This document shows positions 7,849-37,620 of a stretch of 37,620 bases of DNA, piece by piece. This DNA is from Nitrospirota bacterium (lineage in GTDB: Bacteria; Nitrospinota_A; UBA7883), in the NCBI GenBank assembly GCA_011052055.1, contig DRJW01000143.1, positions 1 through 37,620 of the forward strand, given 5' to 3'. The notes under the pieces are model-generated. The model searched no databases, was not told the DNA's origin, and saw only the letters and a list, made by a program, of their open reading frames with translations. The first letter of the stretch is position 1, and every line of letters begins with the position of its first letter. Made by a program: the position numbers and the translations under genes.

Positions 7849-9403
7849 CGCGATTCCGCCAGCCGCGATTTTTATTATTGGAGCCCTTTTTGTTCCATTT
7901 CTGAAAGGAAAGGCAAAGCAGGTTACTTTGCTTGTTATTCCGCTCATTACATTTCTTGATCTTTTGCTTATGCCGGAAGGCTCATACTGGGTTATCCACT
8001 TCCTGGATTACGATATCACTTTTGGCCGAGTGGACAAACTGAGTATGGTCTTTGGATATATATTTACAATCATGTCCTTTATTTCAATCCTCTACGCTAT
8101 TCATGTAAAGGATGATATGCAACATGTGGCGGCCCTTTTATATGTGGGGAGCGCTTTAGGGGCTGTTTTTGTTGGGGATTTTCTGTCACTCTTCGTCTTT
8201 CTGGAGATAATGACGATCACTTCGACATGCATTATATGGTCACGAAGGACAGAGGCGTCTTATTCGGCAGGATTGAGATATATTCTGGTTCATATTTTTG
8301 GAGGGCTTTGCCTTCTCGCTGGTATTCTTATCCATGCGCATCAAACAGGTTCTATTGAGTTTGGGCTCATAGGATTAAATGGACTGGGATCCTATCTTAT
8401 ATTGCTGGGTTTTGGCATAAATTGCGCTTTCCCTGTACTTCATGCATGGCTCCCTGACGCTTATCCTGAGGCGTCAATTACGGGTACCATATTCGTGAGT
8501 GTCTTTACGACCAAAACAGCGGTATACGCCCTGGTAAGGTCGTATCCTGGCACTGAGGCTCTGATAGCGGTTGGGGCTCTAATGACTGTCTTCCCTATCT
8601 TTTTTGCGGTCATTGAGAATGACCTGAGGAAAGTCCTTGCCTATAGCCTGATCAACCAGGTTGGATTCATGGTGGTCGGCATTGGAATAGGCACGGAACT
8701 GTCGCTCAATGGCTCTGTTTCACACGCTTTTACCAACATACTGTTTGAGGGCTTGCTCTTTTTATGTATGGGCGCTGTTATGCATCAGACGGGAAAGATC
8801 AATGCTACGGATTTGGGGGGACTATATAAATCAATGCCCCTGACGGCCGCATTTTGCATCGTAGGCGCGGCATCCATCTCCGCTTTTCCTTTATTTAGTG
8901 GTTTTGTAAGCAAATCCATGATTATCAGCGCGTCTGGTCACGGTGGGATGACGGTTGTCTGGTTTATGTTGCTGTTTGCCTCTGCTGGCGTCTTCCATCA
9001 TGCAGGTATAAAAATCCCATTTTTTGCTTTTTTCTCTCACGACTCTGGTATAAGAACAAAGGAGCCGCCCCTTAATATGCTTATAGCCATGGGGATAGCC
9101 GCCTTTTTATGCATCTTCATAGGTGTATTTCCCGGGTCGCTATATAGTATTCTTCCTTACCCGGTTGATTTTGAGCCCTATACGGCAAGCCATGTTTTGA
9201 ATCAGGTTCAGTTACTCTTTTTCTCCGCATTGGCCTTCTGTCTCCTCATATTGGCTGGAATATATCCAGCGGAAATCAGGGCTATCAATCTCGACGCGGA
9301 TTGGTTCTATCGAAAAGGCGCCAAGGTGTTTTACTGGCTGGCTAGCAGGCGAATGCCCTGGGCCGTTTTGTTTGTCATCTCTGTGGGTTTTGTGATTTAT
9401 TAA
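7841..9403 (+). CDS. proton-conducting antiporter-like membrane subunit (NuoL/M/N-MrpD family), copy 2
   Basis: The track ORF starts at a TTG at 7817. The ATG at 7841 overlaps the upstream TAG. Motifs: FVFLEIMT (TM5 Glu), PVLHAWLPDAYPEA and FPLFSGFVSKSMI (TM12 Lys). The TM7 Lys position reads GINCAF rather than GxSKAA. Confidence 0.85.
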   Translation: MTSAIPPAAIFIIGALFVPFLKGKAKQVTLLVIPLITFLDLLLMPEGSYWVIHFLDYDITFGRVDKLSMVFGYIFTIMSFISILYAIHVKDDMQHVAALLYVGSALGAVFVGDFLSLFVFLEIMTITSTCIIWSRRTEASYSAGLRYILVHIFGGLCLLAGILIHAHQTGSIEFGLIGLNGLGSYLILLGFGINCAFPVLHAWLPDAYPEASITGTIFVSVFTTKTAVYALVRSYPGTEALIAVGALMTVFPIFFAVIENDLRKVLAYSLINQVGFMVVGIGIGTELSLNGSVSHAFTNILFEGLLFLCMGAVMHQTGKINATDLGGLYKSMPLTAAFCIVGAASISAFPLFSGFVSKSMIISASGHGGMTVVWFMLLFASAGVFHHAGIKIPFFAFFSHDSGIRTKEPPLNMLIAMGIAAFLCIFIGVFPGSLYSILPYPVDFEPYTASHVLNQVQLLFFSALAFCLLILAGIYPAEIRAINLDADWFYRKGAKVFYWLASRRMPWAVLFVISVGFVIY

Positions 9404-9453
9404 AGTTATATACCCCGCAGTTTGCGGGAAAATTTATTCGGAGAAGGTTATTC

Positions 9454-11721: not shown

Positions 11722-12482
11722 AAAAGAGAGTTTCTGGCATAGGGGCCTTGGTCTTGGTTCTCGGCCTCGTTGTAATGACCAATGGTTGCTCTCTGTTTGG
11801 AGATAAGTTCGTGGCGATCGGGAAGAAGCTTTTTGACTACCGTTGCGCTGACTGTCATGGAGAATCTGGTAAGGGCGACGGCTTCAACGCGAAAAACCTG
11901 GATTTTGAGCCCAGGGATCTGACAGATTCGGAGGAGAGGGTTCTCGGTGACCTGACCAATGAAGAGATATTTAATACACTATCGCGTAATATAAAAGATG
12001 AAGACGCTTCTGTCGTGCCTTTCATGCCGACTTTTAAAAACACGCTTGCTGAAGCGGAGATATGGGCGATCATCGCTTATGTCAGGACTCTTCATCCAAA
12101 TAACGCTCCCAAGATTGAGTTGACTCCGGAAATGAAGAGGAAAAGGCCAAGGTTCCCCCGGATCAGAAAAGTTGATATTGATCCCGAAATAATGAAAAGT
12201 AAGGAGCATATAGAAAATGGACAAAGTTTGTTTGAAGAGACTTATGGTTGCCTTACCTGCCATAATATCGGGGGTGAGGGGGGCAGGATAGGTCCCAAAC
12301 TGGATCGGGCCGGATTCCGGTCAAATGCGGATTGGCTCTATCGCTGGATCAAGAATCCCCAAGCGATCGAGCCTCGCACCAAGATGCCTAATCTTGGGCT
12401 CACGGATGAGGACGCTATGGATGTCGTGGCGTACCTGAAAACTTTGCAAGCGCCAAGGGGCCCGGATCTGCCCGCTAAATAA
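11718..12482 (+). CDS. diheme c-type cytochrome, lipoprotein
   Basis: ATGA overlap with the upstream gene. Lipobox VMTNGC. Two heme-c motifs, CADCH and CLTCH, each with a downstream Met (FMPTF, TKMPNL). Confidence 0.85.
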   Translation: MKKRVSGIGALVLVLGLVVMTNGCSLFGDKFVAIGKKLFDYRCADCHGESGKGDGFNAKNLDFEPRDLTDSEERVLGDLTNEEIFNTLSRNIKDEDASVVPFMPTFKNTLAEAEIWAIIAYVRTLHPNNAPKIELTPEMKRKRPRFPRIRKVDIDPEIMKSKEHIENGQSLFEETYGCLTCHNIGGEGGRIGPKLDRAGFRSNADWLYRWIKNPQAIEPRTKMPNLGLTDEDAMDVVAYLKTLQAPRGPDLPAK

Positions 12483-12606
12483 GGTAAGAATATTGTATTT
12501 GTAAATAGCTGACCGCTTGCCAGCCTTGCGATTGATAATTTCTAGATACCAGATAACAAATAACGTATAAAGTAAGGATTTATTTTAGAATATGGGGGCC
12601 ATTATT

Positions 12607-13278
12607 ATGAAGAAAACATTTTTTATTTACTGCCTGTCTCTAATGGTTTTTATTGCAGTCCCTTCCTGGGCCGCAGACGGAAAGGCGCTTGTTAAAAGCA
12701 ACAAGTGTGGAAGTTGCCATAAAATGCAGGGGCCAGCCGTTAAAACAATAGCCGAAGTGTTAAAAAGAAAAGCGCCGGATCTGTTTTACGCAGGTAGCAA
12801 ATTCAACAAGGATTGGCTTGTAAAGTACATCCAGAGCCCGACCGTGATTCGGCCCGGGGGAGTTGTGTACACCAATAATATAAAGTTAAATGGAGACCAG
12901 GATGAGCCGGCTAATCTTCTGAAGTGCGCCTCGAAGTTGAGCGCTGGTGACGCGGCGGCGGTCGGTGATTATCTTATGAGCTTAAAAGACGCCACAATGA
13001 AAGTTGGAGTTTTCAAAAAGGCGAAAATTAAAAAAGCCATGGCCAGAAGGGTGATGATGAAAGGGGAGGCTTGTAACGCATGCCACTCTTTTCCTAAAAG
13101 GGGGGGAGGCGTGTCATGCCCCACATTTGAGGGAATTGGAAGCCGCCTCAATCCCGACTGGATGTACAGCTTCGTTAATCACCCGCAAAAATGGGACCCG
13201 AAAGTGTGGATGGCAAAGCGTGATTTAGATGACGCCACGTTGCAATTGATAGTTAACTTTCTTTCTTCCATGAAATAG
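12607..13278 (+). CDS. diheme c-type cytochrome, secreted
   Basis: The track ORF is 12592-13278. The ATG at 12607 follows GGGGG and yields a signal peptide, MKKTFFIYCLSLMVFIAVPSWA-AD. Heme-c motifs CGSCH and CNACH. Confidence 0.8.
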   Translation: MKKTFFIYCLSLMVFIAVPSWAADGKALVKSNKCGSCHKMQGPAVKTIAEVLKRKAPDLFYAGSKFNKDWLVKYIQSPTVIRPGGVVYTNNIKLNGDQDEPANLLKCASKLSAGDAAAVGDYLMSLKDATMKVGVFKKAKIKKAMARRVMMKGEACNACHSFPKRGGGVSCPTFEGIGSRLNPDWMYSFVNHPQKWDPKVWMAKRDLDDATLQLIVNFLSSMK

Positions 13279-13292
13279 GAGGATTATATATT

Positions 13293-13676
13293 ATGAAAAA
13301 CATAAACAAATCGATGAAAATTTTAACAATGTTTCTGCTGGCCGCTCCTCTGATCATGGTTTCATTTGGCCTGGCGTCAGCAAAAGAAACCGCCACAGAC
13401 AACTATAAGCTTTACTGTGTTCAATGCCACGGGACAAAAGGAACGGGCAAGGGTATTAACGCGCCTTTTTTAAGCGTTGCCCCGCGAAATCATACCAGCG
13501 CCAAGGATATGGGCGAGCTTTCCGACGATAACGTATTCAAGGCGATTAAATCGGGCGGTGGAGCGGTCGGTAAATCGACCCAAATGCCTTCGTGGGGGGC
13601 AGTGATGACTGATGATGAAATTCATGATATGGTTAAGCGCTTGCGCGTGATGTGCAAATGCGAGGGGAAGAAATAA
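13293..13676 (+). CDS. monoheme class I cytochrome c, secreted
   Basis: AGGAGG precedes the ATG. A signal peptide is present. Motifs: CVQCHGTKGTGKG and the distal-ligand context STQMPSW. Confidence 0.85.
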   Translation: MKNINKSMKILTMFLLAAPLIMVSFGLASAKETATDNYKLYCVQCHGTKGTGKGINAPFLSVAPRNHTSAKDMGELSDDNVFKAIKSGGGAVGKSTQMPSWGAVMTDDEIHDMVKRLRVMCKCEGKK

Positions 13677-13891
13677 CAAACAGTATCCGCGCAATTTTGT
13701 GAGCGCGCAGAGCGCTTGCGGTGGATGTAGTTAAGCGGCATTCACCGCAGGTGTCTCAGTGTTGATGATACGGCCATTATTTTACCGCTCGGCGGGCTTT
13801 ATACATTGAGGCGAAGGCTATGGCAACGAGGCGGAGTTTGAGATCACCTATAGTCAAAAGTCGCTCCGTCACATTCGTTGGCGGCGGCAGA

Positions 13892-14449
13892 ATGTCAAAA
13901 TATTTATCGCGTTTGATGACAGCGATTATTATCTGCGTAAGCCTTGCTGTTTCAAGCGTATATGCGCAGGATCTTTCAGACCATCACAAGATCAACATAG
14001 ACCCGACTATGAAAAAGAAGATGAGTCCTGAGGCGCTCAAATCGATTCAGAGGTTTTTTAAGGACGCCGAGCTTGCGATAGAGAAGGAAAACCTGGACGG
14101 CTTGATGAGTCTATATTCGGATCACTATAAGAACGCCTCACATACGAAGCAGTCAGCCCGCACTATCTGGATCAGGATTTTCGAAAAATTTGATGACATG
14201 GCGTCTGTTCACAATATGCGGATGAAGATGTATTCTCCAGATAGTAATGTCATTATTATCCGCTGTAGCGGACTTCTGATGGGCAAACCTGTTGGAGAGG
14301 CTGAGCTTATCACCATCGACAGCTGGACCAATGAGGATCACGTTTTATCCAGGGTGAAAAAGGGAGACGCCTGGAAGCTGATTGGCACTGCCGGTCAAAA
14401 AAAACGCAAGCGTCTCTGGTTCGATAAGCCGATGCATCCGTTGTTCTGA
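13892..14449 (+). CDS. secreted hypothetical protein, NTF2/SnoaL-like fold suspected
   Basis: The track ORF is 13820-14449. The internal ATG at 13892 gives a signal peptide, MSKYLSRLMTAIIICVSLAVSSVYA-QD. The pattern LDGLMSLYSDHY ... WKLIG resembles DUF4440/SnoaL-type proteins. The fold call is tentative. Confidence 0.55.
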   Translation: MSKYLSRLMTAIIICVSLAVSSVYAQDLSDHHKINIDPTMKKKMSPEALKSIQRFFKDAELAIEKENLDGLMSLYSDHYKNASHTKQSARTIWIRIFEKFDDMASVHNMRMKMYSPDSNVIIIRCSGLLMGKPVGEAELITIDSWTNEDHVLSRVKKGDAWKLIGTAGQKKRKRLWFDKPMHPLF

Positions 14450-14614
14450 CCCCTATTTATTAAAAGGCTCTGGAGCGTCGGTTGGCGCGAAGACAATTTC
14501 CGGCCCGCAATAAACGCAAGCCAGCGTTAGGTTATATCCAGGTTGAATCTCTTTTGTTAAACGGACGTCTTATATAAAGCTTTTTTAACCGTGGGTTCGT
14601 CTGGAGAGGAGTGT

Positions 14615-15760
14615 ATGGGAATTGAGACATCGGGCGAAAATCGTTCGATCTGGTCGGCCATCGCCCCCCAAAAGCTGAACTACAGACATTACTTCGGCGG
14701 AATGGCCCTGTTGTTGATCGTCGTTCAGCTTATCACCGGGCTCTACATGATATTTTATTACGAGCCCTCCCTGCGCGAGACGTATAAAACCGTTCAATTT
14801 TTTAACAATGAGACGACGCTTGGAGCGTTGACCAGGAATATCCACAGGTACAGCGCGTATTTTATTGTAGTCGCCATGTTTATCCATTTCTGGAGATCTT
14901 ATTTCAGGCTTGACTACCAGGGAGGGCGTAAATGGCTCTGGGTGACGGGCATTCTCCTGACAACAATCATTTCCGGCTCCGTTATCAGCGGAACCATTCT
15001 ACCCTGGGAGTGGAAAGGCTACTGGACGATGGAAATGTTTAACAACTGGCTTAAGACCATTCCGGTGATAGGCGACGATCTCTATATCTTTTTCATGACA
15101 AGCTACACACCCACGCGAAACTTTGTTTTTCACGACATAATGCTTCCGATAATCGCTTTTATCCTGCTGGAAATTCATTGCATAGGAAAGCTCAGAAAAA
15201 GAGGACTAACAGATTATTTTCTGCGTCATTTCATCGCTATAGCGCCTCTGTTGCTTATAATAGCCGGTTTTAGCCTTCTGTTTCCCATTCCCACCGAAGA
15301 TCCTGAAATCATTCCACTACCTATGGCAGGCCGATACATTCCCTCGCCAGAGTCATTTTTTCTCACTTTTCTTCTGCCCTACTGGTACTTCCCGCCCCGG
15401 TCATTTAGCATTTATCTATTTTGGATTCCATTTGTTCTGCTGATATTTGCTCTGCTATTGCCGTTCATCATCAAAAAGAAGAGCAAGGCAAAGCTTGATC
15501 TGGAAAATCCGCTCCGCAGAAAACTCGCCAGGATAATATACGTTGGAGCAGGAGGCCTGTTGCTCATTTTTGTAGCCGCCGGTTTTTTTTGGGGAAGCGC
15601 AAAATCTCCATGGATGGGCTGTAACAGCTGTCATAACGCCGCGATGGGAGACCGAATGGGCATTCCCCCGGTCACTTATAAAGATACGATACGAAACCCC
15701 TTGCTTATGGATAAAAGATGGATGATAAGGCACTGGTATGAGCCACAAGTTGTCTGGTAA
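14615..15760 (+). CDS. cytochrome b6-like protein (b6 plus subunit-IV-like helices) with a C-terminal heme-c site
   Basis: The track start is a GTG at 14591. The ATG at 14615 follows GGAGAGGAG.
- Helix B His pair NIHRYSAYFIVVAMFIH (H-x13-H).
- Helix D pair FHDIMLPIIAFILLEIH (H-x14-H, b6 type).
- PWEWKGYW.
- PESFFL at the place of the PEWY motif.
- An extra C-terminal TM helix, then CNSCH (15620-15634). Confidence 0.85.
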   Translation: MGIETSGENRSIWSAIAPQKLNYRHYFGGMALLLIVVQLITGLYMIFYYEPSLRETYKTVQFFNNETTLGALTRNIHRYSAYFIVVAMFIHFWRSYFRLDYQGGRKWLWVTGILLTTIISGSVISGTILPWEWKGYWTMEMFNNWLKTIPVIGDDLYIFFMTSYTPTRNFVFHDIMLPIIAFILLEIHCIGKLRKRGLTDYFLRHFIAIAPLLLIIAGFSLLFPIPTEDPEIIPLPMAGRYIPSPESFFLTFLLPYWYFPPRSFSIYLFWIPFVLLIFALLLPFIIKKKSKAKLDLENPLRRKLARIIYVGAGGLLLIFVAAGFFWGSAKSPWMGCNSCHNAAMGDRMGIPPVTYKDTIRNPLLMDKRWMIRHWYEPQVVW

Positions 15761-16367
15761 CCAAATATTTAAAGCCGGTTTTTATATTGCCGTCCTAGCT
15801 TTTGTTACAGGAGGTTGTGACCAGAAAATTGTGGGCCATCCTGAAAAAGTCACAAGTGACTATATAAAAGCGGTGCAAAGGAATGACTTTAAGGCTATTT
15901 ATAAACTAAATTTCGACACTTCCAGAAGTAGCAAATATCTTAAGTGCTCGGATGAGAAAGCCGAGGAAAAAATATGTGAGCAGAATTTCAGGGAAAATAA
16001 AACCATCTACGAAAACGTGGAGCTCAACTTGTCTCCAGGAGTCCGTTGGACTGAAAAGTATTATTTCCCGGCGTCGGCGCTGATAGATATCGGCGAGCCA
16101 TATCCTCCCGTTGCCGCAGGTGAAGACGACATAAACTCCAAATACGAGAAGGCGGTGTCGGTTTTTATTCCCGTGAAAGTGGAATACCCAGACCAAGATG
16201 AGGCTCCATCACAAGATGATCGTAAAATAAAAACCGCCAGTTTCGAATGTGTGCTCCGCAAAATCAGGGAAGGTGGAAATGTACGCGTTTATTCAAATGA
16301 TACCAAGTGGTATTTCGCCGGGTGCGTTTTTAATTCTTTATCGGCCACATATCATAAAGGTGGATAA
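15738..16367 (+). CDS. lipoprotein, unknown function
   Basis: Overlaps the cytochrome b stop by 23 nt. Lipobox FVTGGC. I recognise no catalytic motif. Confidence 0.6.
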   Translation: MSHKLSGNQIFKAGFYIAVLAFVTGGCDQKIVGHPEKVTSDYIKAVQRNDFKAIYKLNFDTSRSSKYLKCSDEKAEEKICEQNFRENKTIYENVELNLSPGVRWTEKYYFPASALIDIGEPYPPVAAGEDDINSKYEKAVSVFIPVKVEYPDQDEAPSQDDRKIKTASFECVLRKIREGGNVRVYSNDTKWYFAGCVFNSLSATYHKGG

Positions 16368-16520
16368 ATTGGTTTTGACTAAATTCGAATCTGGTAATTC
16401 GATTTGACAGATCAATATATGGGAATTTGGAATATTTTGATTGAACAAAATGGAAAATATTATCCCCCAGGATGCCTGCTTTCAAGCGGCAAAAGCTCCT
16501 AAATACAATTTATTTCACTG

Positions 16521-16535
16521 TGACAAATTTTGTCA
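16521..16535. promoter_or_regulatory. 7-1-7 inverted repeat TGACAAA-T-TTTGTCA, candidate operator
   Basis: A perfect 7-bp-arm palindrome, immediately followed by ATAAAT/TATTAT -10-like hexamers. It sits in the 385-nt AT-rich spacer upstream of the cytochrome c gene at 16753. Confidence 0.35.
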
Positions 16536-16752
16536 TAAATATTATTTTTACCTTCGCTTTTACCCTTTCAATTGCAAAGCTTGGGCAAAGATAGACCGAC
16601 AGTGTAACAGTATTGTTACGCTTATGCGCATGAAAAACCGGCCACTCGATTATATGCGAGTAAAGGTATATATGTTGCTCTAAAGCTTACCAAACTAGTA
16701 CTTTGTGTAAATCCAAATTGGAAACAGTCAATACTGATGGAGGGGTAAGGGC

Positions 16753-17883
16753 ATGAGATTAAGATCAATTATCATTTGCTTTATGGCGTTAGCCTTCGTG
16801 TCGTCAGGCCTGCTGACGCCTGACTATGCGGACGCCGCTAGGAAGAAGAAAACAAAGGCGGAGCTAAACGCCGCCAAGAAATCGGGGGATCTTTCAGAGT
16901 CGCAGGCGGAAAAGTTCCGCAACGCGTACGGGGCAGAGGCCGATGAAGCCAACATTGAGTCTTTTGAGACAAAGACCAAGAAAACTGGCTTGGGTAACTC
17001 GACTTACGGCGTAGTCGGGTTCGACTATTTGACCGGAATAGGCAAGGTCGCTTCCGATCCGTCACAGATCAACGAGAAAACCTTTAAACTCAAATCGGCC
17101 AATAAAAGCCCGCTTGAAGGCCTTATGAAGAAGCGCTTTAAGCATAAATGGACCGGACAATACAACGATACAGAGTCTGGATGGACCGGAAAAACCGGCG
17201 TGACGGAGGTCTGGTTCCGCAAGCATGATTCAGGCTCCAAGCTGGGCGCTGATTACAACGCATGGGTGAACCAGTGGAACAATCTTACTCGTCCCGGCCA
17301 TAAAAAAGGGGAGAAAGGGGCTTTCACAACCCCTGTCGCCGGCGCTGATCCCGATCAGGGCGCTCATTGGTTCTCTTTTTATTGCGTGCATTGCCACGGT
17401 TGGACCGGCAAGGGTGACGGGCCTACAGCGGCCATGTTGGATCCCCGTCCGCGTAACCTGACCAACGGCAAATACACCAACTTTGTCTCTAACGTCGATA
17501 TCTTTACCATGATCAAAGGTGGCGGCCTGGCCCGCAACCTGTCTCAGGCGATGCCTCCCTGGGGCAACGTTCTTCAGGATCAGGATATCTGGAACACCGT
17601 CGCCTTCATACGCACATTGGCCGACAAGCCGAAATACGTCCCGGATCCAAGCGACGTGACTGCGGCTAACGCCAAAAAATCACAGGAGTTCCAGGATATG
17701 AACGAGGAGCTTGAGCTACCTGGTGTCATGGCTGGTCGTGGAGTAAACAAAGGCGGCTATAACTCAGTGGGTGGAGGCAGGCTTGCCTCAGAGAAGACCG
17801 GCGTGTCTGTAAAAGAGACATCCGGTGAGAACCCATGCGCCAGGCAGGGCGATTATGGAGAAACCAGGCAGTATGATAAATAA
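16753..17883 (+). CDS. monoheme c-type cytochrome with a long N-terminal extension, secreted
   Basis: GGAGGGG precedes the ATG. A signal peptide is present. One heme-c motif in the context FYCVHCHGWTGKGDGPTAAMLDPRPRNL. This resembles heme domain 2 of the 755-aa protein (CEPCHGVKGEGDGPAAKFLVPRPRDF). Distal SQAMPPW. Confidence 0.8.
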   Translation: MRLRSIIICFMALAFVSSGLLTPDYADAARKKKTKAELNAAKKSGDLSESQAEKFRNAYGAEADEANIESFETKTKKTGLGNSTYGVVGFDYLTGIGKVASDPSQINEKTFKLKSANKSPLEGLMKKRFKHKWTGQYNDTESGWTGKTGVTEVWFRKHDSGSKLGADYNAWVNQWNNLTRPGHKKGEKGAFTTPVAGADPDQGAHWFSFYCVHCHGWTGKGDGPTAAMLDPRPRNLTNGKYTNFVSNVDIFTMIKGGGLARNLSQAMPPWGNVLQDQDIWNTVAFIRTLADKPKYVPDPSDVTAANAKKSQEFQDMNEELELPGVMAGRGVNKGGYNSVGGGRLASEKTGVSVKETSGENPCARQGDYGETRQYDK

Positions 17884-18082: not shown

Positions 18083-19027
18083 ATGATAGAAGTAAAGCAT
18101 CTAACAAAAGTTTACGGTGAAGCACGGGGTATAGAAGATATAAATTTCACCATGGAGCGTGGTGAAATCATGGGGTTTCTTGGGCCCAACGGCGCAGGGA
18201 AAACCACCACTATGCGGATACTCACCTGTTTTATGCCGGCCACCAGCGGAACCGCCAAAGTGGCTGGATACGACGTATTCGAAGACTCGCTGAATGTCCG
18301 CCGAAGGATAGGCTATCTCCCTGAAACGGTGCCTCTTTATACAGACATGCAGGTACCGGCCTATTTAAAGTATGTAGCCGGCCTCAAAGATGTCCCGTGG
18401 AAGAAGATAAAGAGCAGAGTGGGTAGGGTGATGGAGCAAGTGGGGCTTTCCCACATGGCGCATAAATATATAGGGGAGCTTTCAAAAGGATACCGGCAAA
18501 GAGTGGGGCTTGGCCAGGCTCTTATAAACGATCCTGAAGTGCTGATCCTCGACGAGCCCACTATCGGACTCGATCCGCAACAGATAATCGAAATCCGCTC
18601 CCTGATCAAAGGGCTAAGCGGCGACAGGACGATAATACTTAGCAGTCATGTTCTTCCTGAAGTCAGCATGCTGTGCGGCCGCGTAATCATAATTGACGAG
18701 GGGAAGCTAAAAGCCATCGACACTCCGGAAAACCTGGTGGCCAAGCTTCAAGCCTCCGACAGTGTAAAGGCCCGCATCTCCGGCCCGGCCGATTCTGTTA
18801 TCAGCGCCCTCAAAGGGATTGAGGGTGTTAAAAAAGTGGAGTCGTCGGGCGCCGTCGGCTCTTCCGGTGAATACGTTGTGGAATTTGTAAGAGGATTTAA
18901 CGGATCGCACCTGCTTGCGCGCGTAGCGGTTGAGAGGAAATGGGACCTTTACGAATTGACGCCGATCAAAATGAGCCTGGAGGACATATTTATTCATATT
19001 GTCACCGATGAGGACAGCTCTTTATGA
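18083..19027 (+). CDS. ABC transporter ATP-binding protein (ABC-2 / GldA-like)
   Basis: Walker A GPNGAGKTT, Q-loop, signature LSKGYRQR, Walker B LILDEPTIGLD and the H-loop SSHVL. Confidence 0.9.
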   Translation: MIEVKHLTKVYGEARGIEDINFTMERGEIMGFLGPNGAGKTTTMRILTCFMPATSGTAKVAGYDVFEDSLNVRRRIGYLPETVPLYTDMQVPAYLKYVAGLKDVPWKKIKSRVGRVMEQVGLSHMAHKYIGELSKGYRQRVGLGQALINDPEVLILDEPTIGLDPQQIIEIRSLIKGLSGDRTIILSSHVLPEVSMLCGRVIIIDEGKLKAIDTPENLVAKLQASDSVKARISGPADSVISALKGIEGVKKVESSGAVGSSGEYVVEFVRGFNGSHLLARVAVERKWDLYELTPIKMSLEDIFIHIVTDEDSSL

Positions 19028-19803
19028 GGAACTTTTTTTTCATTTTCGCAAAAGAGACAAAATCGTATTTTAACTCTCCGGTCGCCTTTGTCGTGCTGAC
19101 CATTTTCTCCGCTCTGACTGGCTATTATTTTTACAACATTTTCGCCTCGTTCAGTACGCTAAGCTTTCAGGCGCAGACCAATCCCGCTCTCATAAACCAG
19201 TATGGAGCCTTTAATGTAACGGAATTCGTGATACGACCTTTTTTCGGGATCGTAAGCGTTGTCATGCTTATCATCATGCCGATGCTCACCATGCGCTCGT
19301 TCGCCGAAGAGAAAAAAACCGGAACAATGGAGCTTCTCCTCACCTTTCCAGTCCGAGACAGCGAGGCGATACTCGGCAAATTCGCCGGGTGCATGGGTAT
19401 TTTCGCTATCATGCTGGGTCTCTCTTTTCCGGCGATGCTTCTTGTGGAATATTTTGGCGACCCGGAATGGGCCGTAATCGCGACAGGTTACATAGGTCTT
19501 ATTATGATGGGAGCGGCGTTTATCTCTCTTGGGATTTTCATGTCGTCGATAACGGAAAACCAGATCATCGCCGCTGTCCTTTCTTTTGCCTCGCTGATGA
19601 TCCTGTATATGGTGGGATATACAGCCGGCCTGGCCGGGGAGATGGTCGGTCGGGTTCTCGAATACATCTCCTTTTCTTTCCACTACGAAAAATTTGCCAG
19701 AGGTGTGGTAGACACTTCGGATGTTGTCTACTACCTTCTTTTCACTATCATGTTTCTTTTTCTTAGCATGCGGTCACTCGAATCCAAACGGTGGAGAGGA
19801 TAA
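19024..19803 (+). CDS. ABC-2 type transporter permease (GldF-like)
   Basis: ATGA overlap with the ATPase gene. 259 aa with six hydrophobic helices, typical of ABC-2 permeases. Confidence 0.8.
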   Translation: MRNFFFIFAKETKSYFNSPVAFVVLTIFSALTGYYFYNIFASFSTLSFQAQTNPALINQYGAFNVTEFVIRPFFGIVSVVMLIIMPMLTMRSFAEEKKTGTMELLLTFPVRDSEAILGKFAGCMGIFAIMLGLSFPAMLLVEYFGDPEWAVIATGYIGLIMMGAAFISLGIFMSSITENQIIAAVLSFASLMILYMVGYTAGLAGEMVGRVLEYISFSFHYEKFARGVVDTSDVVYYLLFTIMFLFLSMRSLESKRWRG

Positions 19804-19807
19804 GCAA

Positions 19808-21382
19808 ATGGTTTCACCAACTCTGATTATAGCTGTTATCAGCGTAATTCTGATTGCGGCGGGGCTTAGTCTTTACGCCATAGGCGGAGCTATGTCGATT
19901 CAAACCGCCGGAATTTTATGGGTAGGCTTAATGCTTGCTCTGTTCTTGCTCTATGCCCGTTTTAAAGACATCAGAAAAGCGCTGGTCGGACGAAACGCAA
20001 AATACGGAGCCAACATGGCGGTTGTGATAACGGTCTTTTTCGGGGTTCTCGTTTTCATGGCGATATTGGGCCATGCTCACAACAAAAGGTTCGACTTTAC
20101 GAAAACAGGCAGGTTCACCCTTTCATCGCAAACCAAAAAGATTCTTTCAACTCTGGAAAAACCGGTCAAGGCCATAGCCTATTACAGGTCCGAGTCGGGC
20201 ACCATGCACGCAAGGCAACGACAGGCCGCGCGAGACTTGTTAGAGGAATATTCCAATCTTTCAAAAAACTTCACCTTCACATTCATCGATCCGGACCGCA
20301 ACCCTGGGCTGGCTTCAAAATATGGTGTGTCCGAGTACCGCATTATTATGCTTATGTCTGCCGGCAAACAGGTAAAAGTCGGCTCAGAAAGAGAGGAGAA
20401 ACTGACCAACGGCCTTATAAAGCTCATAAGAAAAAAGCAAAAGTATATTTACTGGGTCAAAGGCCACGGGGAAAAGGACCTGGCCTCCACAAAAAAAGAT
20501 GGCTACAGCGCCGCCAGGGACGCCATTCTCTACGAGAATTACGAGATCAAGGAGCTTTTCTTGATGAGAGAGAAAAAAGTTCCAGATGACGCTACCGTGG
20601 TAGTCATCGCAAGTCCCAAAAAAGAGTTTACAAAAGATGAGCTGGAAAAAATAAACCAGTATTATCTCCGGGGAGGGGCTATCTTTGCGCTTATCGACCC
20701 CGGTCATCCTCCCGGATTTCAGACATGGCTGGAAAATTACGGATTCAAACTTCAAAGTGACGTGATCATAGACCAGCAGAGCCAGCTTTACGGAGCCAAC
20801 GCCCTGACACCGGTGGTGTACGCCTATCACAAAAAACATCCTTTGACCCGGGATTTTTCATTGGCTTCATATTTTCCCATAGCTAACTCAGTTTACATTG
20901 ATGAAGATCCAAAGCGCGGACGGTATCAGCTGGCCCTTACCGGGCCTAACAGCTGGACTGAACTTGATAAAGACCAGCTGGAGTCAGGAAACGCGCAATA
21001 CAATGAAGATCATGAAAAAAGAGGCCCGGTTCCAGTGATGTCCGTGACAACAGTGGCGACAAAAGGAGAGAAGGACAAGCAGGGGGCAAAAGCGGATATC
21101 TATGGGAAATTCGTGCTCGTTGGTGACTCTGATTTTGCGAGTAACACCAATATAAACCTTGCTGGCAACGGGGACCTGTTTCTCAACACGATAAGCTGGC
21201 TCGCCGAAGAGGCCAACCTGATCGCGGTGCGCGCAAAGAGGAAAAACATAAAGCCTGTGGTTCTGACAGTCAGCCAGGGCAGGGCTATATTCTGGATTCC
21301 TGTGGCGATGGTTCCATCTATTGTATTGATGGCGGGGATAGGGATATACAGTCGCAGACGGTGGTTCCGGCATGACTTTTGA
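19808..21382 (+). CDS. GldG-like ABC transporter auxiliary protein
   Basis: The track ORF starts at 19721, inside the permease gene. The ATG at 19808 follows GGAGAGGA and the permease stop. N- and C-terminal TM anchors surround a large extracytoplasmic domain, in the typical position after GldA/GldF-like genes. Confidence 0.7.
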   Translation: MVSPTLIIAVISVILIAAGLSLYAIGGAMSIQTAGILWVGLMLALFLLYARFKDIRKALVGRNAKYGANMAVVITVFFGVLVFMAILGHAHNKRFDFTKTGRFTLSSQTKKILSTLEKPVKAIAYYRSESGTMHARQRQAARDLLEEYSNLSKNFTFTFIDPDRNPGLASKYGVSEYRIIMLMSAGKQVKVGSEREEKLTNGLIKLIRKKQKYIYWVKGHGEKDLASTKKDGYSAARDAILYENYEIKELFLMREKKVPDDATVVVIASPKKEFTKDELEKINQYYLRGGAIFALIDPGHPPGFQTWLENYGFKLQSDVIIDQQSQLYGANALTPVVYAYHKKHPLTRDFSLASYFPIANSVYIDEDPKRGRYQLALTGPNSWTELDKDQLESGNAQYNEDHEKRGPVPVMSVTTVATKGEKDKQGAKADIYGKFVLVGDSDFASNTNINLAGNGDLFLNTISWLAEEANLIAVRAKRKNIKPVVLTVSQGRAIFWIPVAMVPSIVLMAGIGIYSRRRWFRHDF

Positions 21383-21456
21383 GTTTAAAAGGTTTTTTAC
21401 CGAATCAACGTCGCCTGGAAGACTACCCATAGCTTTTTTGAAGAGATAATCCTTGG

Positions 21457-22809
21457 ATGAATTATTTCAAGACTACGTTCTGGTGGATCATCGTTCTGGC
21501 GGCGGTGGGGGGGTACAGTTACCTTGACTATGAAAAAACAAGAGTCGAAGAGATTCAAAAAGATGAAGCGACGCGGCTGTTTCCTTTTTATCCCAAGGAT
21601 ATTCTGTCGATTATTCTTAATAAAGGAGATAGGGTGATCGAGTTGGAGCGATGGGAGGAGGGCTGGAGGATGGTCGCTCCCATAAAAGTCAAAGCGGAAA
21701 GCAAAGCGGTGGAGAAGTTCCTCGGATACATAACCGATTCGCGTAACGACGCAGACTATATAATGGATCCCGATCCTTCTCCCCAAAGACTTGTGGAGTT
21801 CGGGCTCGCCGATCCTGAAGTTAGCGTGACGCTCAAAGTAGGCAAACAGCTAAACGAATACACGCTCCAGTTCGGCGCCAGAGCCCCCACCAAAGGAGTC
21901 GCTTTCGCCAGGCTCAAAGGTGAAAAGGCTGTCTACAGAGTCCTGTCGTATATGCGCGCCGAGGCGGATAAGGATGTATATTACTTCAGGGACAAATCAG
22001 TTCTTCGTCTTAATCCGTTGATGATCGATCAGCTTGTAATAAATCGAAAAGAAGGTTCCATCAGGGTGAAACTGCCGCAAGACGGCAAATGGGAAATTGA
22101 GAAACCTATCAAGGCGCGGGCAGACCATAATAAAGTGTTCGAAATTCTTGGGATGTTCGCAAATGCCCAAGTTAAAAATTTTATTTCCGAGAATAAAAAC
22201 AACTTGAAGGCTTACGGTCTCGATAAGCCGGACATAGAGCTTATGCTCTGGCAGAGCGGCGACTCCGAACCGACATTGAAAATAGAGGTCGGCGCCAGAA
22301 ATCCTGAAAAACGGGGGTATTTTGTCTCGATGTCTGACAGGGACAACGTGTTTCTACTGGAAGAAGACTTGATAAGCGCCATCCCCAGAGGCGCCAATGA
22401 TTTAAGAAGCAGAGACCTCCTTTTTTTCGAGAGCGACAAGTTGAGGAGGATCGAGATACGAAGACCTAACAGGTCTGTCGCGCTGGTTCGTGACAAAGAC
22501 AAGGAATGGAGAAAAAATAATGTAGATGGGGAGAAAGTTGATTTTAATCTGGTAAAAGAAATGCTGAGCGGGGTGCTGGAGTTGAAAATAAGTGATTTTA
22601 TCACCGATTCTCCTAAAAGCTTAAAAGCGTACGGTCTGGATCCTCCAGAGATGAAACTTCTGTTGTGGCCGGAAAAAAGCGCGGTGCCCATTTTCCTAAG
22701 CGTAGGGTCAAAGACGCCCTCAGGAAATGTTTACGCCATGTCCGGCGCGCAGGGCTCCGTTTTGGCGCTTGATAAGAGCGTAAAACGGATATTAAAAATT
22801 ATTTTATGA
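21457..22809 (+). CDS. DUF4340-like protein
   Basis: An N-terminal TM anchor. Repeated modules are present (VEFGLADPEVSVTLK, KAYGLDKPDIELMLW, KAYGLDPPEMKLLLW), as in DUF4340 proteins that follow GldG homologues. Confidence 0.65.
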   Translation: MNYFKTTFWWIIVLAAVGGYSYLDYEKTRVEEIQKDEATRLFPFYPKDILSIILNKGDRVIELERWEEGWRMVAPIKVKAESKAVEKFLGYITDSRNDADYIMDPDPSPQRLVEFGLADPEVSVTLKVGKQLNEYTLQFGARAPTKGVAFARLKGEKAVYRVLSYMRAEADKDVYYFRDKSVLRLNPLMIDQLVINRKEGSIRVKLPQDGKWEIEKPIKARADHNKVFEILGMFANAQVKNFISENKNNLKAYGLDKPDIELMLWQSGDSEPTLKIEVGARNPEKRGYFVSMSDRDNVFLLEEDLISAIPRGANDLRSRDLLFFESDKLRRIEIRRPNRSVALVRDKDKEWRKNNVDGEKVDFNLVKEMLSGVLELKISDFITDSPKSLKAYGLDPPEMKLLLWPEKSAVPIFLSVGSKTPSGNVYAMSGAQGSVLALDKSVKRILKIIL

Positions 22810-34736: not shown

Positions 34737-36539
34737 TTGAAAAAATCCATTATATTTAGTTTGGCGCTGATTATAGGCGTCACACTTCTTTCGGTTAAGG
34801 CCGAGGCCAAGAAGACCGTCCTGACTCCTTTCGATAAACGTGACTGGCACGTGACCGAAAAGTATGACAGCGACGCGCCTTTGCGTGACTACGCTATCTT
34901 GTACGACGCTGGCGGCGTTGATGGCGCTATCGGCGTTATCGGCATTCCGTCGATGAGGACATACCGCCATATCAGGGTGGGTGTGGATCTTCACAACTTT
35001 CCATTCTCCGGCTCCAACGCCGGGAATAATAACGGTACGCCTGACGGTAAGTACCTGTATGTCTCCGACAAAGGGGCCAACACTATCGGCGAGGTTAATC
35101 TCCAGACAGGCTGGACTGAAAGAATCTTCGCCTTACCGGTGCCTTTTGGTGTCCACCACTGCGCCGCCCTGTCGCCCAACGGAAAATATCTGTTCGCCAC
35201 AGGCGAGTTGACAGGCAAAATGCTCAAGCTGAGGCTCAGTGACGGCGCCACGACGGTGCTTAACATTCCGCCCGCGCCGAGCTCTCCAGATTATCCAGAC
35301 ACGAGTAAAGACGGAAAGTATGTATTTTCCGGCAACTACTATCACTCCACTGTCATGGTGTTCAGCCAGGATCCTTTCAAGCTGATCAAAGAGATACCGG
35401 TCGGTAAAAACCCGCACGGCACGAATGTTAGCCCGACTAACAGGATGGTTACCGTATGCGACAAGCTTTCAGCTACTCTGTCGGTTATCGACGTGGAGAC
35501 ACTGAAGGTTCATAAGGTTATTCCGACCGGCGCTGGCCCACTGCATAACCAGATCGACTCACTTGGCAAGTATGTTTACCAGTCTTGCTTCGTGTCCGAC
35601 TCTACCTCGAAGATAGATTTGCAGCGTATGCAACTTGTCGACGAGTTTCCAATCCACTATCGTGTTGGTCACAACTCGATAGCTCCTGACAACGCTTATT
35701 ATGTATCGCAAAACAAGTTCTCGACCGGTCTTTTTACACCGACGGGAATAGTGTTCGCGGTCAACTTTGAGTTAGAGGATATCGACGAAACTTCTGACAC
35801 ATACGGCAAATCTGTCAAGATTATTCCGGTGGATGGTGAGCCTCACGAGGGGCGTCAGATTTTCGCCACATTTATCCAGCGTTGGAACACCGGTAAAGGC
35901 GACGATCTGTTTACCAAAGGTTATGACCTTGGTGACGTTCATGTCTCTTTCGGCGCTAAAGGGCGCCCCGGTCTGCCAGCCAACGTTCATCCGCAACTTG
36001 AGCCTCGTCACGTGGCCAACACCAAGAAAAGGTGGGTGCCACGGGATAACGGCAAGCCTGGAATCACCAAGGATGGCGATGTATACGTGATCCGTGTCAA
36101 GGGCTTCTCTTATGGTTATGTGCCAAGGTTTATCCATGTGCCAAAAGGCGCCAAAGTGAGGATTATTTACACCAATATCGACAAGGCGGCCGGTCTGACA
36201 AAGAATCCGGATGTCACCATGGGGCTGAATATATATGGCTTCTATGGTCCGCGGACGATGATTATCGGTGTGCGCGGCATGTCAATGGTGGCCGAGTTCG
36301 TAGCTTCGAAGGCTGGTGAGTATGAGTTCTTTTGCCAGCACTTCTGCGGTCCCTTGCATCTTGAGATGCGCGGAACGTTCTTTGTCGATCCACCGGGGCA
36401 ACAGGCCTCTTTGGCCGTCGGTGATTACGACAGTGTCTCCATGAAGGAGCAGTTGGTCGATGAGAATGAGCATGTATGGGTCGTAGGTACTAACAAGCTG
36501 ATGAATACTCTGACTGAAGGTAAGGAGCCTACCATATAG
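34737..36539 (+). CDS. nosZ: divergent nitrous-oxide reductase (NosZ)-like protein: beta-propeller plus CuA-type cupredoxin, Sec signal
   Basis: TTG start after GGGGGTGA. By-eye matches to Pseudomonas stutzeri NosZ:
- GVIGIPSMR (compare GVPSMR).
- GVHHC (H178 region).
- VGKNPHGTNVSP (PKNPHGCN).
- GAGPLHNQ (GLGPLHT).
- HYRVGH (HYQPGH).
- DGEPHE (AEPHD).
- TNID.
- The CuA motif CQHFCGPLHLEM (C-x3-C-x3-H-x2-M) at 36333-36368. Confidence 0.75.
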   Translation: MKKSIIFSLALIIGVTLLSVKAEAKKTVLTPFDKRDWHVTEKYDSDAPLRDYAILYDAGGVDGAIGVIGIPSMRTYRHIRVGVDLHNFPFSGSNAGNNNGTPDGKYLYVSDKGANTIGEVNLQTGWTERIFALPVPFGVHHCAALSPNGKYLFATGELTGKMLKLRLSDGATTVLNIPPAPSSPDYPDTSKDGKYVFSGNYYHSTVMVFSQDPFKLIKEIPVGKNPHGTNVSPTNRMVTVCDKLSATLSVIDVETLKVHKVIPTGAGPLHNQIDSLGKYVYQSCFVSDSTSKIDLQRMQLVDEFPIHYRVGHNSIAPDNAYYVSQNKFSTGLFTPTGIVFAVNFELEDIDETSDTYGKSVKIIPVDGEPHEGRQIFATFIQRWNTGKGDDLFTKGYDLGDVHVSFGAKGRPGLPANVHPQLEPRHVANTKKRWVPRDNGKPGITKDGDVYVIRVKGFSYGYVPRFIHVPKGAKVRIIYTNIDKAAGLTKNPDVTMGLNIYGFYGPRTMIIGVRGMSMVAEFVASKAGEYEFFCQHFCGPLHLEMRGTFFVDPPGQQASLAVGDYDSVSMKEQLVDENEHVWVVGTNKLMNTLTEGKEPTI

Positions 36540-36622: not shown

Positions 36623-37180
36623 ATGAGATTGTCATCGAAGTTTCCGATTGCGGGGGTACTTATCCTTTTAATGGCTACAGGCTGTACCAGTAAAAAGGAA
36701 GAAACTGTATTGCCCGCTACGACGCCTGATAAAGTAGTTTTACGTTTTTTTGATCTTATCTCTGAAGGCGGAAAGCTGACAAACATGGAAGCTATGAAAT
36801 TGATTAGCGCCAAGACGTCCAGGGTGGATCAAAATACTTTTAGAAAATGGACTCAGGAATTCAGCAAAGAATCGAAAATCAAAGTAGTTAAAACAGTCAT
36901 TAATAAAAAACGGGACGGAGATGGATACCTGATTGCGAATGTGTCAATGGAAGTTATGTCACCGTCGGTATTCGGCGGAGATTTTAAAAGCACGTCCAGC
37001 ATGAACCTTATATTGAATGAAGAGGCCCACAAATGGGAAATAGATTTTCTGGCCCAGACGGTTAACGAAGATGATTTTCTTAAAGCTCCGAAAGACGCCA
37101 GGGCCGTGCCTTTGGAGCCTTCGATACGCGAAGATAAAGTTGAACCCAAAAAAGTTGAAACGAAAGTTGAAGCGAAATGA
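36623..37180 (+). CDS. lipoprotein, NTF2/DUF4878-like fold suspected, with a Lys/Glu/Val-rich tail
   Basis: Lipobox LMATGC. DKVVLRFFDLISEGG ... YLIANVSMEV ... KWEIDF resembles small NTF2-like lipoproteins. The C-terminal tail is EDKVEPKKVETKVEAK. The fold call is tentative. Confidence 0.55.
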   Translation: MRLSSKFPIAGVLILLMATGCTSKKEETVLPATTPDKVVLRFFDLISEGGKLTNMEAMKLISAKTSRVDQNTFRKWTQEFSKESKIKVVKTVINKKRDGDGYLIANVSMEVMSPSVFGGDFKSTSSMNLILNEEAHKWEIDFLAQTVNEDDFLKAPKDARAVPLEPSIREDKVEPKKVETKVEAK

Positions 37181-37620
37181 TTAAAACGTTAGTGGACTGG
37201 TTTGATTTAAGGCTCGGCGTCAGAGATTTTTATGATCGGCACATAGCCTATCCGCTCCCCGAAGGCCTTAACATCTGGCACGTTTTCGGTGGTCTTACCA
37301 TAGGTTGCATTTTAATTCAATTCATCACCGGCTTCTATATGCTCTGGTACTACATCCCGCTACCAGATTTGGCGCACCAGAGCATCAACGATATGTGCAA
37401 CCAGACTTCTTTTGGCGCCTTGTTCAGAAACGTCCACAGATACAGCGCCACGCTGACGATAGTATTTATATTTATTCACTTTATCCATATTCTGGCCAAG
37501 CGGTCTTACAGGCCGCCAAGAGAACTAAACTGGTGGACGGGGTTGACGCTGGCTTTGATTTTTGTCATGTTTCTAATAACGGGTGTTGTCATGCCCTGGG
37601 ATTGGCGTAGCTATTGGGAG
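37177..37620 (+). CDS. cytochrome b (b6/bc1 N-terminal domain), 3' end cut by window edge
   Basis: Absent from the ORF track because it runs off the edge. ATGA overlap with the upstream stop. Translation: MIKTLVDWFDLRLGVRDFY ... FGGLTIGCILIQFITGFYMLWYY ... NVHRYSATLTIVFIFIH (H-x13-H) ... PWDWRSYWE. 148 in-frame codons reach the edge. Confidence 0.85.
   Translation, partial: MIKTLVDWFDLRLGVRDFYDRHIAYPLPEGLNIWHVFGGLTIGCILIQFITGFYMLWYYIPLPDLAHQSINDMCNQTSFGALFRNVHRYSATLTIVFIFIHFIHILAKRSYRPPRELNWWTGLTLALIFVMFLITGVVMPWDWRSYWE

Follow-up and report, generated by a model that had tools for sequence, protein, structure and literature searches.

Nitrous oxide reductases and the locus under study

The closest described relatives of the protein studied here are the nitrous oxide (N2O) reductases, NosZ, in which a beta-propeller holding the CuZ cluster precedes a cupredoxin domain holding CuA. 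We analyzed a stretch of 37,620 nucleotides (nt) from the metagenome-assembled genome (MAG) of a Nitrospirota bacterium (contig DRJW01000143.1, assembly GCA_011052055.1), hereafter the window, and focused on one of its genes, L-nosZ (34737..36539, forward strand, as are all features of this gene given below). A preliminary description of this sequence had pointed out unusual residues at both copper sites. We found that the 600-residue product is almost certainly a homologue of the clade III, lactonase-type nitrous oxide reductases (L-NosZ), and that it belongs to a large subclade in which a Met replaces the first His of the CuA site.

Clade I enzymes, e.g., those of Pseudomonas stutzeri (PDB 3SBP) and Paracoccus denitrificans (1FWX), have a twin-arginine signal and a DxHHxH motif, and require NosR and NosDFYL. 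CuZ has seven His ligands at the hub of the propeller, and CuA is bound by two Cys, two His, one Met, and one backbone carbonyl. In P. stutzeri the CuA ligand H583 flips between IN and OUT positions, and this flip has been proposed to gate electron transfer. The equivalent residue of Marinobacter nauticus NosZ binds CuA1 together with a Met. Clade II enzymes (TIGR04246) are exported by Sec and encoded in nos clusters with nosDFYL and nosB. They have an intact DxHH motif, Gly or Ser after the equivalent of H178, and the CuA His.

Clade III L-NosZ goes back to He et al. (Nature 2025;646:152), as cited in later papers, and its genes are now being added to the N2O sinks of lakes, wastewater, and sediments as one that had been overlooked. 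Demonstrated N2O reduction by clade III is listed only for two organisms, Desulfitobacterium nosdiversum Sab5 and Sporomusa acidovorans Mol, whose enzymes are UniRef100_P0DXY7 and UniRef100_P0DXY8. As quoted in a later study (10.64898/2026.07.10.737647), the discovery study accepted proteins of 400-900 residues that match the L-NosZ hidden Markov model (HMM) with E < 1e-5 and carry five motifs, and its filter accepts GXHH instead of DXHH.

A member of clade III deposited as a hypothetical protein

The open reading frame of L-nosZ starts with a TTG codon preceded, at a distance of 6 nt, by the Shine-Dalgarno sequence AGGGGGTGA (34722..34730). The N-terminus of the product, MKKSIIFSLALIIGVTLLSVKAEA, is a Sec-type signal peptide without twin arginine (residues 1-24, ending ...VKAEA/KK; 34737..34808), in agreement with the preliminary description. 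An identical protein, HEB71726.1, is deposited as "hypothetical protein ENI77_03800 [Nitrospirae bacterium]".

The NCBIfam model NF052460.1 ("L-NosZ, clade III lactonase-type nitrous-oxide reductase") aligns residues 52-551 to positions 2-479 of its 480 (E=4.5e-185). Using this model in place of the discovery study's own HMM, we found that the protein passes the published E-value threshold, has a length within the accepted range, and carries all five motifs: CQHFCGPLHLEM at 533-544, GVHH at 138-141, NPHG at 225-228, GPLH at 267-270, and EPH at 368-370. Since the discovery study's filter lists GXHH, the extra His of GVHH corresponds to a published motif. The D. nosdiversum enzyme is 42% identical to the protein (BLASTP, E=4e-120). 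In contrast, the clade II model TIGR04246 gives 158 bits for a cutoff of 625 (a Sec-type signal is present, and the motif reads DLHN), and the clade I model TIGR04244 gives 106 bits for a cutoff of 625, with no twin arginine and with DLHNFP at the position of DxHHxH. The protein thus adds an unannotated member to a known family; it is not a new kind of enzyme. The preliminary description had proposed, as one of two alternatives, a divergent N2O reductase lineage with a remodeled active site, which is right, but the lineage had already been published and named.

The chain of NosZ signatures that it had listed is present in the order given there: IPSMR starts at residue 70, VDLHNF at 83, SGSNAGNNNG at 91, GVHH at 138, KNPHG at 224, GPLH at 267, HYRVGH at 307, GEPHE at 367, TNID at 479, DVTMGL at 492, and the CuA loop at 533. 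The AlphaFold2 (AF2) model has a mean predicted local distance difference test (pLDDT) score of 81.4 and a predicted template modeling score of 0.84. A seven-bladed beta-propeller that would hold CuZ (residues ~52-376; 34890..35864) is delineated by this model, where pLDDT is mostly 84-97, by Foldseek, and by the Pfam families nos_propeller and Lactonase. A C-terminal cupredoxin (CuA) domain (residues ~430-551; 36024..36389) is delineated by Pfam, the profile search, and the AF2 model. In a Foldseek search of the PDB, each of the best 50 matches is a NosZ (E ~1e-30), with no L-NosZ structure among them. The clade I enzymes are the best structural matches, at ~19-21% identity. The template modeling score is ~0.5 and the root-mean-square deviation is large, consistent with the two domains being arranged differently in the monomer model. 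Hence, by the predicted structure, the protein has the two-domain fold of NosZ, propeller then cupredoxin, as do P0DXY7 and P0DXY8, which share its family model.

The predicted CuZ site is that of the whole clade

We aligned the protein with 181 clade III sequences, two degenerate relatives, and eight canonical NosZ (clades I and II), and checked the P. stutzeri numbering against the hmmsearch alignment to the PDB. The clade III sequences are clusters at 90% identity and fall into three groups, which we call His-type (n=14), Met-type with Glu (n=120), and Met-type with Asn, or Asn-type (n=48, including the protein of the window; two of these have a gap at one column each). A twin-Arg-like motif is found in 0/48 Asn-type, 1/120 Glu Met-type, and 0/14 His-type sequences. 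Positions D127·H129·H130 read D·H·H in the canonical sequences, D·H·E in the His-type and Glu Met-type groups, and D·H·N in the Asn-type. Positions H178·G179 are H·G/S in the canonical sequences and H·H throughout clade III. Positions H326·H382·H433·H494 are H·H·H·H, and C618·C622·H626·M629 are C·C·H·M, in all four sets. Position H583 is His in the canonical and His-type sequences and Met in both Met-type groups.

The first CuZ motif reads His-Asn, not His-His, exactly at the coordinates where it had first been noticed: in H86-N87 (34992..34997), the remnant of DxHH, H86 is equivalent to H129 and N87 occupies the position of H130. The hmmsearch against the PDB set P. stutzeri GDCHHPHISMTD as an insertion, which makes the first motif ambiguous in that alignment. 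The equivalence of DLHN and DxHH was settled by MAFFT L-INS-i with the canonical sequences and by hhalign of L-NosZ against the canonical profile (probability 100%, E=3e-66), which pairs VDLHN with GDLHH, GVHH with GIHG, and DVTMGL with DLTHGF. Across the 182 clade III sequences, position 87 is Asn in 48, Glu in 134, and never His. The stretch between PSMR and this motif, described earlier as about 30 residues short, lacks 26 residues relative to P. stutzeri, and 26-43 relative to the eight canonical sequences (MAFFT), those of clade II included.

The second His pair, H140-H141 (GVHH; 35154..35159), joins the equivalent of H178 to a His at the position of G179, where it replaces Gly/Ser; H141 is a candidate seventh CuZ His. 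The preliminary description saw this extra His, but did not tie it to the one missing from DxHH. The other CuZ ligand positions are H227 (NPHG; 35415..35417), equivalent to H326, H270 (GPLH; 35544..35546), equivalent to H382, H312 (VGH; 35670..35672), equivalent to H433, and H370 (EPH; 35844..35846), equivalent to H494. There are in total seven invariant His (86, 140, 141, 227, 270, 312, and 370), six at homologous positions and one, H141, at a non-homologous position. Relative to clade II, five of the seven CuZ His lie in the same motifs. H141 is invariant in 182/182 clade III sequences and N87 in 48/48 close relatives, and the combination of DxH[E/N] and GxHH with seven His is common to all 182. 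The AF2 model places H140 and H141 at the entry to the innermost strand of a blade, H227, H270, and H312 at the start of innermost strands, and H370 just before a strand. Judging from the alignment, the "two-His blade" appears to have moved to the next propeller blade in clade III.

The enzymes of D. nosdiversum and S. acidovorans have DTHE and GPHH, i.e., the CuZ pattern of our protein with Glu for Asn, and share with it NPHG, GPLH, GH, and EPH. Because the enzymes of both organisms with demonstrated activity carry this pattern, it is no argument for a different cluster, a possibility that the preliminary description had raised together with that of a different substrate. The CuZ deviation is a known trait of the whole clade that seems compatible with activity.

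A Met-type CuA site fixed in a large subclade

The preliminary description had also placed a Met at the first CuA His. Four alignments (hmmsearch against the PDB, MAFFT, BLASTP, and hhalign) agree that M495, whose codon lies at 36219..36221 as given there, is equivalent to P. stutzeri H583. Every member of the subclade has Met here (168/168), and every His-type L-NosZ (14/14) and canonical sequence (8/8) has His. The enzymes of D. nosdiversum and S. acidovorans, which share with our protein an insertion of six residues ahead of the first CuA ligand, keep the His (APMHGF and APVHGF). They further differ in having Glu where it has Asn (H130) and in their lipoprotein-type N-termini (…LAGC), although they too have no twin-arginine signal. 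The best-scoring PDB chains for the family profile are engineered P. stutzeri H583F/W/Y/A variants. The series to which these belong (PDB 7AQ2-7AQ9: A, D, E, N, F, Y, and W) has, like our protein, a non-His residue at this position, but was engineered in the laboratory and does not include Met.

The rest of the site is intact. The loop C533-Q-H535-F-C537-G-P-L-H541-L-E-M544 (36333..36368), which is the CX2FCGPLHLEM of P0DXY7 and P0DXY8, provides two bridging Cys, a His, and a Met, and C533, C537, H541, and M544 of the C-x3-C-x3-H-x2-M pattern are invariant. Together with the CuZ positions, all of the clade I positions H129, H178, H326, H382, H433, H494, C618, C622, H626, and M629 thus have their homologous residue in the protein. 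The C-x3-C-x3-H-x2-M loop is also found in the cupredoxin of cytochrome c oxidase subunit II (Thermus thermophilus ba3, 2CUA/1EHK; E ~1e-7 to the family profile), which differs from our protein in keeping both His and lacking the propeller domain.

Several residues were considered as replacements for the lost His. H535 lies at the position of Trp620, the backbone carbonyl ligand, and was rejected because it varies, with Gln in 22 of the Asn-type sequences and Thr in 7. Inspection of the sequence and alignment revealed no conserved alternative His in residues 480-510 around M495, so that the scenario of a ligand hidden close by, raised in the preliminary description, does not hold. H203 (GNYYHS; 35343..35345) is invariant in the Met-type only: its column is His in 168/168 Met-type sequences, Lys/Arg in the 14 His-type, and Ser/Thr/Asp/Leu in canonical NosZ. 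It co-varies perfectly with M495, but it is one of 33 columns fixed differently between Met-type and His-type, and since all these changes lie on a single branch, they point to no compensating residue. The case for H203 as a stand-in acting in trans was therefore too weak. The Met-type also has a conserved C-terminal tail of about 50 residues (552-600; 36390..36536) with the motif LAVGDYD, an invariant G562, and a nearly invariant Y564; model confidence is low for residues 581-600. The tail is missing from 13/14 His-type sequences (absent or not conserved there) and absent from most canonical NosZ. Like the invariant H203, it distinguishes our protein from P0DXY7 and P0DXY8.

By analogy with the M. 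nauticus enzyme, and in its numbering, we infer that CuA1 of the Met-type would be coordinated by two Cys thiolates and two Met thioethers, and that gating by a histidine flip at residue 495 would be ruled out. The CuA potential is probably shifted.

Relatives and phylogeny

A word-indexed search identified 246 relatives at E<=1e-10, and 157 GTDB species representatives encode one. Those at 69-86% identity are mostly titled Nitrospinota MAGs. Those at 50-60% come from Nitrospiria, Desulfobacterota, Gallionellaceae and other Nitrosomonadales, Zetaproteobacteria, Magnetococcales, Gammaproteobacteria, Hyphomicrobiales, and Rhodospirillaceae. In an exhaustive profile search of 1.84 billion representatives these relatives collapse into one cluster at 50% identity (P0096), and the more distant matches are P0123, P0125, P0136, P0121, and canonical clade I and II NosZ, the latter recognized by their NCBIfam scores.

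A neighbor-joining tree (514 columns, 100 bootstraps) separates clade III and its degenerate relatives from clades I and II with a support of 100. The Met-type, which includes Nitrospinota, Nitrospirota, Desulfobacterota, Gallionellaceae, Zetaproteobacteria, and others, is monophyletic (100), as are the Asn-type (Nitrospinota-like) sequences inside it (100) and the His-type (94). Over the trimmed columns, our protein is ~41% identical to the His-type and 28-29% to clades I and II.

Some distant relatives have lost parts of the copper sites. P0125 and P0136 are degenerate L-NosZ relatives that keep the full CuA site, including the His, and have lost several CuZ His. P0121 is a fusion protein of 1139 residues that has lost the CuA cysteines and several CuZ His. 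These three look like repurposed or pseudo-enzymes. P0281, from a Chloroflexi MAG (644 residues), is a His-type L-NosZ with a fused C-terminal cytochrome c domain (Pfam PF00034/PF13442), which supports a c-type cytochrome as the electron donor of CuA in the L-NosZ family.

The deposited label of the MAG is "Nitrospirae bacterium", yet most of the closest L-NosZ relatives and of the syntenic loci are labeled Nitrospinota. The same conflict is seen in several equally close MAGs labeled "Nitrospirae bacterium Dive96". The phylum label may be coarse or outdated.

Gene neighborhood

The window encodes, in this order, a periplasmic binding protein, an FGE-like protein, a sensor kinase, a sigma-54 response regulator, a membrane protein of 914 residues, an exported protein of 140 residues, L-nosZ, a lipoprotein of 185 residues, and a cytochrome b. 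This order recurs in Nitrospinota MAGs, where it continues downstream with a protein of 241 residues that has weak similarity to the C-terminal part of cytochrome b, a beta-propeller, a protein of 347 residues, and a second spermidine-synthase-like protein.

The gene of the cytochrome b (37177..37620, forward strand) runs past the end of the window, which contains its 5' part (148 codons). By sequence comparison it is 65% identical to the cytochrome b of the relative locus L001 and 38% identical (E=1e-33) to the one downstream of His-type L-nosZ. Cytochrome b is a conserved downstream partner of L-nosZ in Met-type and His-type loci. The sensor histidine kinase (27702-29732) and the sigma-54-dependent response regulator (29725-31164), both on the forward strand, form an arrangement that is also found in His-type loci, where the pair lies upstream of L-nosZ and a homologous cytochrome b directly downstream. 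The loci of D. nosdiversum and S. acidovorans share both traits with the window and likewise have no nosDFYL or nosR nearby. His-type loci also contain ABC transporters, a propeller, and cytochromes c, and one of them has a Rieske/cytochrome b set. The accessory genes differ: MacB/FtsX-type ABC transporters in D. nosdiversum and S. acidovorans, and the 140-residue protein, the lipoprotein, and spermidine-synthase-like membrane proteins here.

The remaining genes next to L-nosZ, all on the forward strand, vary in how far they are conserved. The exported 140-residue protein directly upstream (34291..34713) is encoded beside L-nosZ in 29/29 Nitrospinota-type (Asn-type) loci and in 1/54 others. 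The lipoprotein directly downstream (36623..37180; lipobox LMATGC) occupies this place in 27/29 Nitrospinota-type and 22/54 other loci. We considered both as copper chaperones and rejected this, as the Pfam scan gave no match and no Cys, His, or Met is conserved among their 31 and 52 homologues, respectively. The 914-residue membrane protein (31219..33963), with a spermidine-synthase-like domain and TPR repeats, is syntenic in 23/29 Nitrospinota-type loci. Among the 54 distant Met-type loci, the lipoprotein, the cytochrome b, the 241-residue protein, the propeller, and the 347-residue protein accompany L-nosZ in at least 21-29; many contigs end early, and these counts are lower bounds.

Further upstream on the forward strand, a monoheme cytochrome c of 376 residues (16753..17883; CxxCH at residue 211) is a candidate electron donor. 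In 45/54 distant Met-type loci, a homologue of its gene lies within 10 kb of L-nosZ and in the same orientation, at a median offset of +271 nt. An ABC module (18083..22809, forward strand) comprises an ATPase, an ABC-2 permease (NosF/NosY-like), a GldG-like auxiliary protein, and a DUF4340 protein. It lies 15 kb upstream of L-nosZ in the window and accompanies it in a minority of distant loci; similar distant NosF/Y-like genes have been reported for a Nitrospinota clade III MAG. A Pfam scan of the 28 open reading frames of the window revealed no nosD, nosL, or nosR, in agreement with the published description of clade III. That description instead has cytochromes and transporters near nosZ, and the window likewise encodes cytochromes c and b and an ABC-2 transporter.

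Two groups of genes stand apart. The FGE-like gene (FGE-sulfatase domain; 26894-27742), upstream of the kinase and regulator pair, is syntenic in at least 14/29 Nitrospinota-type loci, and relatives L001-L003 have a second copy. A link to the maturation of copper enzymes would be speculative. The region 3474-17883 encodes at least six c-type cytochromes, one of them with an ethylbenzene-dehydrogenase-like heme domain (9454-11721), and the upstream half of the window has two Mrp/Nuo antiporter-like subunits (5998-9403) and a cytochrome b of 389 residues (14591-15760). This suggests a larger electron-transport island. The neighborhood as a whole fits a respiratory enzyme that would be fed from the quinol pool by way of cytochrome b and cytochrome c.

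Is the Met-type protein an N2O reductase?

We favor, with a probability of roughly 0.7, the view that the protein is a functional, periplasmic, Sec-exported clade III L-NosZ of a Nitrospinota-type lineage. Electrons would pass from the quinol pool to the co-encoded split cytochrome b, then to a c-type cytochrome and to CuA, in which one copper (CuA1) would sit in a Cys2Met2 environment, and from there to a CuZ-type cluster, where N2O would be reduced to N2. Expression would probably be under the control of the adjacent sensor kinase and sigma-54 regulator. N2O reductase activity of the protein is plausible.

Several observations weigh against this view. With 615.7 bits, the protein falls short of the 700 bits that NF052460.1 sets as its curated cutoff. 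The Pfam scan of the 28 open reading frames found no recognizable copper or sulfur maturation genes in the window. In P. stutzeri, H129A and H130A each abolish the assembly of CuZ. The loss of this His in clade III therefore has to be made up for, and the proposal requires H141 as the predicted compensating residue. In the accessible literature, which does not include the founding paper, no enzyme with a Met at the position of H583 has been shown to reduce N2O. Finally, only protonatable residues (His, Asp, and Glu) at position 583 reportedly supported electron transfer in P. stutzeri variants; if this held for all NosZ, electron transfer in the Met-type would have to work in another way.

The best surviving alternative, which we consider unlikely, is that the Met-type keeps the NosZ scaffold but has taken on a different role because of the altered CuA site, either with another small-molecule substrate or with an altered direction of electron flow or redox partner. 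The part of the preliminary description that proposed a different substrate or cluster is kept alive by the change from His to Met at CuA, which is fixed in 168/168 sequences, the His being kept by the enzymes of both organisms with demonstrated activity. The 33 further columns fixed unlike the His-type, H203 among them, and the tail specific to the subclade go in the same direction, as do the many hosts that belong, by MAG label, to lithotrophic lineages (oxidizers of nitrite, iron, or sulfur). P0125 and P0136, in which CuA is kept without several CuZ His, suggest that the scaffold can be repurposed. However, the seven CuZ His and the remaining CuA site are invariant in the Met-type and identical to those of the D. 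nosdiversum and S. acidovorans enzymes, and the cytochrome b partner and sigma-54 arrangement are common to the His-type loci. Furthermore, part of the Met-type subclade passes the NCBIfam cutoff: gammaproteobacterial and Hyphomicrobiales members score 772-804 bits, against 566-614 bits, all below 700, for the Nitrospinota-type lineage and 914 bits for the D. nosdiversum-type (P0123).

It is far less probable that the protein is a generic beta-propeller of the lactonase or YncE type without copper chemistry, although annotation would suggest so. The top Pfam matches are the generic propellers YNCE and Lactonase, that of nos_propeller is weak and that of the cupredoxin below threshold, and the relatives are named "beta-propeller fold lactonase family protein" in their sources. 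We rejected this explanation because the cupredoxin domain is complete, with a CX2FCX3HXEM CuA loop, the seven invariant hub His map onto the CuZ ligand positions, and the structural and profile matches to NosZ span both domains.

An ordinary clade II NosZ with sequencing or assembly errors, or a decaying pseudogene, to which the clade II-like Sec signal and the origin of the sequence from a MAG might have pointed, has a negligible probability and is refuted by the model scores (158 bits against 625), by the separation from clades I and II in 100/100 bootstraps where nesting inside clade II had been envisaged, by the recurrence of Asn87 in 48 (all the close relatives) and Met495 in 168 independent clusters from many samples and not in one read, and by an intact reading frame with a good ribosome-binding site.

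Implications for clade III

The locus reveals an annotation gap. The protein is deposited as hypothetical and its relatives as lactonases, and because the whole Nitrospinota-type lineage scores below the NCBIfam cutoff for L-NosZ, automatic pipelines will not name it. The change of the CuZ site across the clade, and the lineage itself, have been published since 2025, and the substitution of His by Met at CuA is the part that keeps real value. N2O reduction by the Met-type and the control of electron entry into it are not addressed in the accessible literature, and the founding paper (He et al. 2025) may address them.

The two sites are natural experiments on the metal centers of NosZ. In the first, a putative CuZ His was relocated from DxHH to GxHH. 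In the second, CuA would have one copper in a Cys2Met2 environment, and the substituted residue is the proposed gate of electron transfer itself. Extrapolating from the alignment, we tentatively suggest, at odds well below even, that most of the clade III clusters recovered (at least 168/182, among them this gene and all copies from Nitrospinota, Gallionellaceae, and Zetaproteobacteria) represent a natural CuA variant that either has different gating and a shifted potential or is not a physiological N2O reductase. Such gating and potential would perhaps be matched to the electron donors of largely lithotrophic-looking hosts. Nearly all the environmental clade III sequences that we collected carry the CuA Met, and both organisms with demonstrated activity carry the His. 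If the Met-type does have such an untypical role or gating, surveys that enter clade III genes among the N2O sinks would rest on extrapolation from the minority His-type enzyme.

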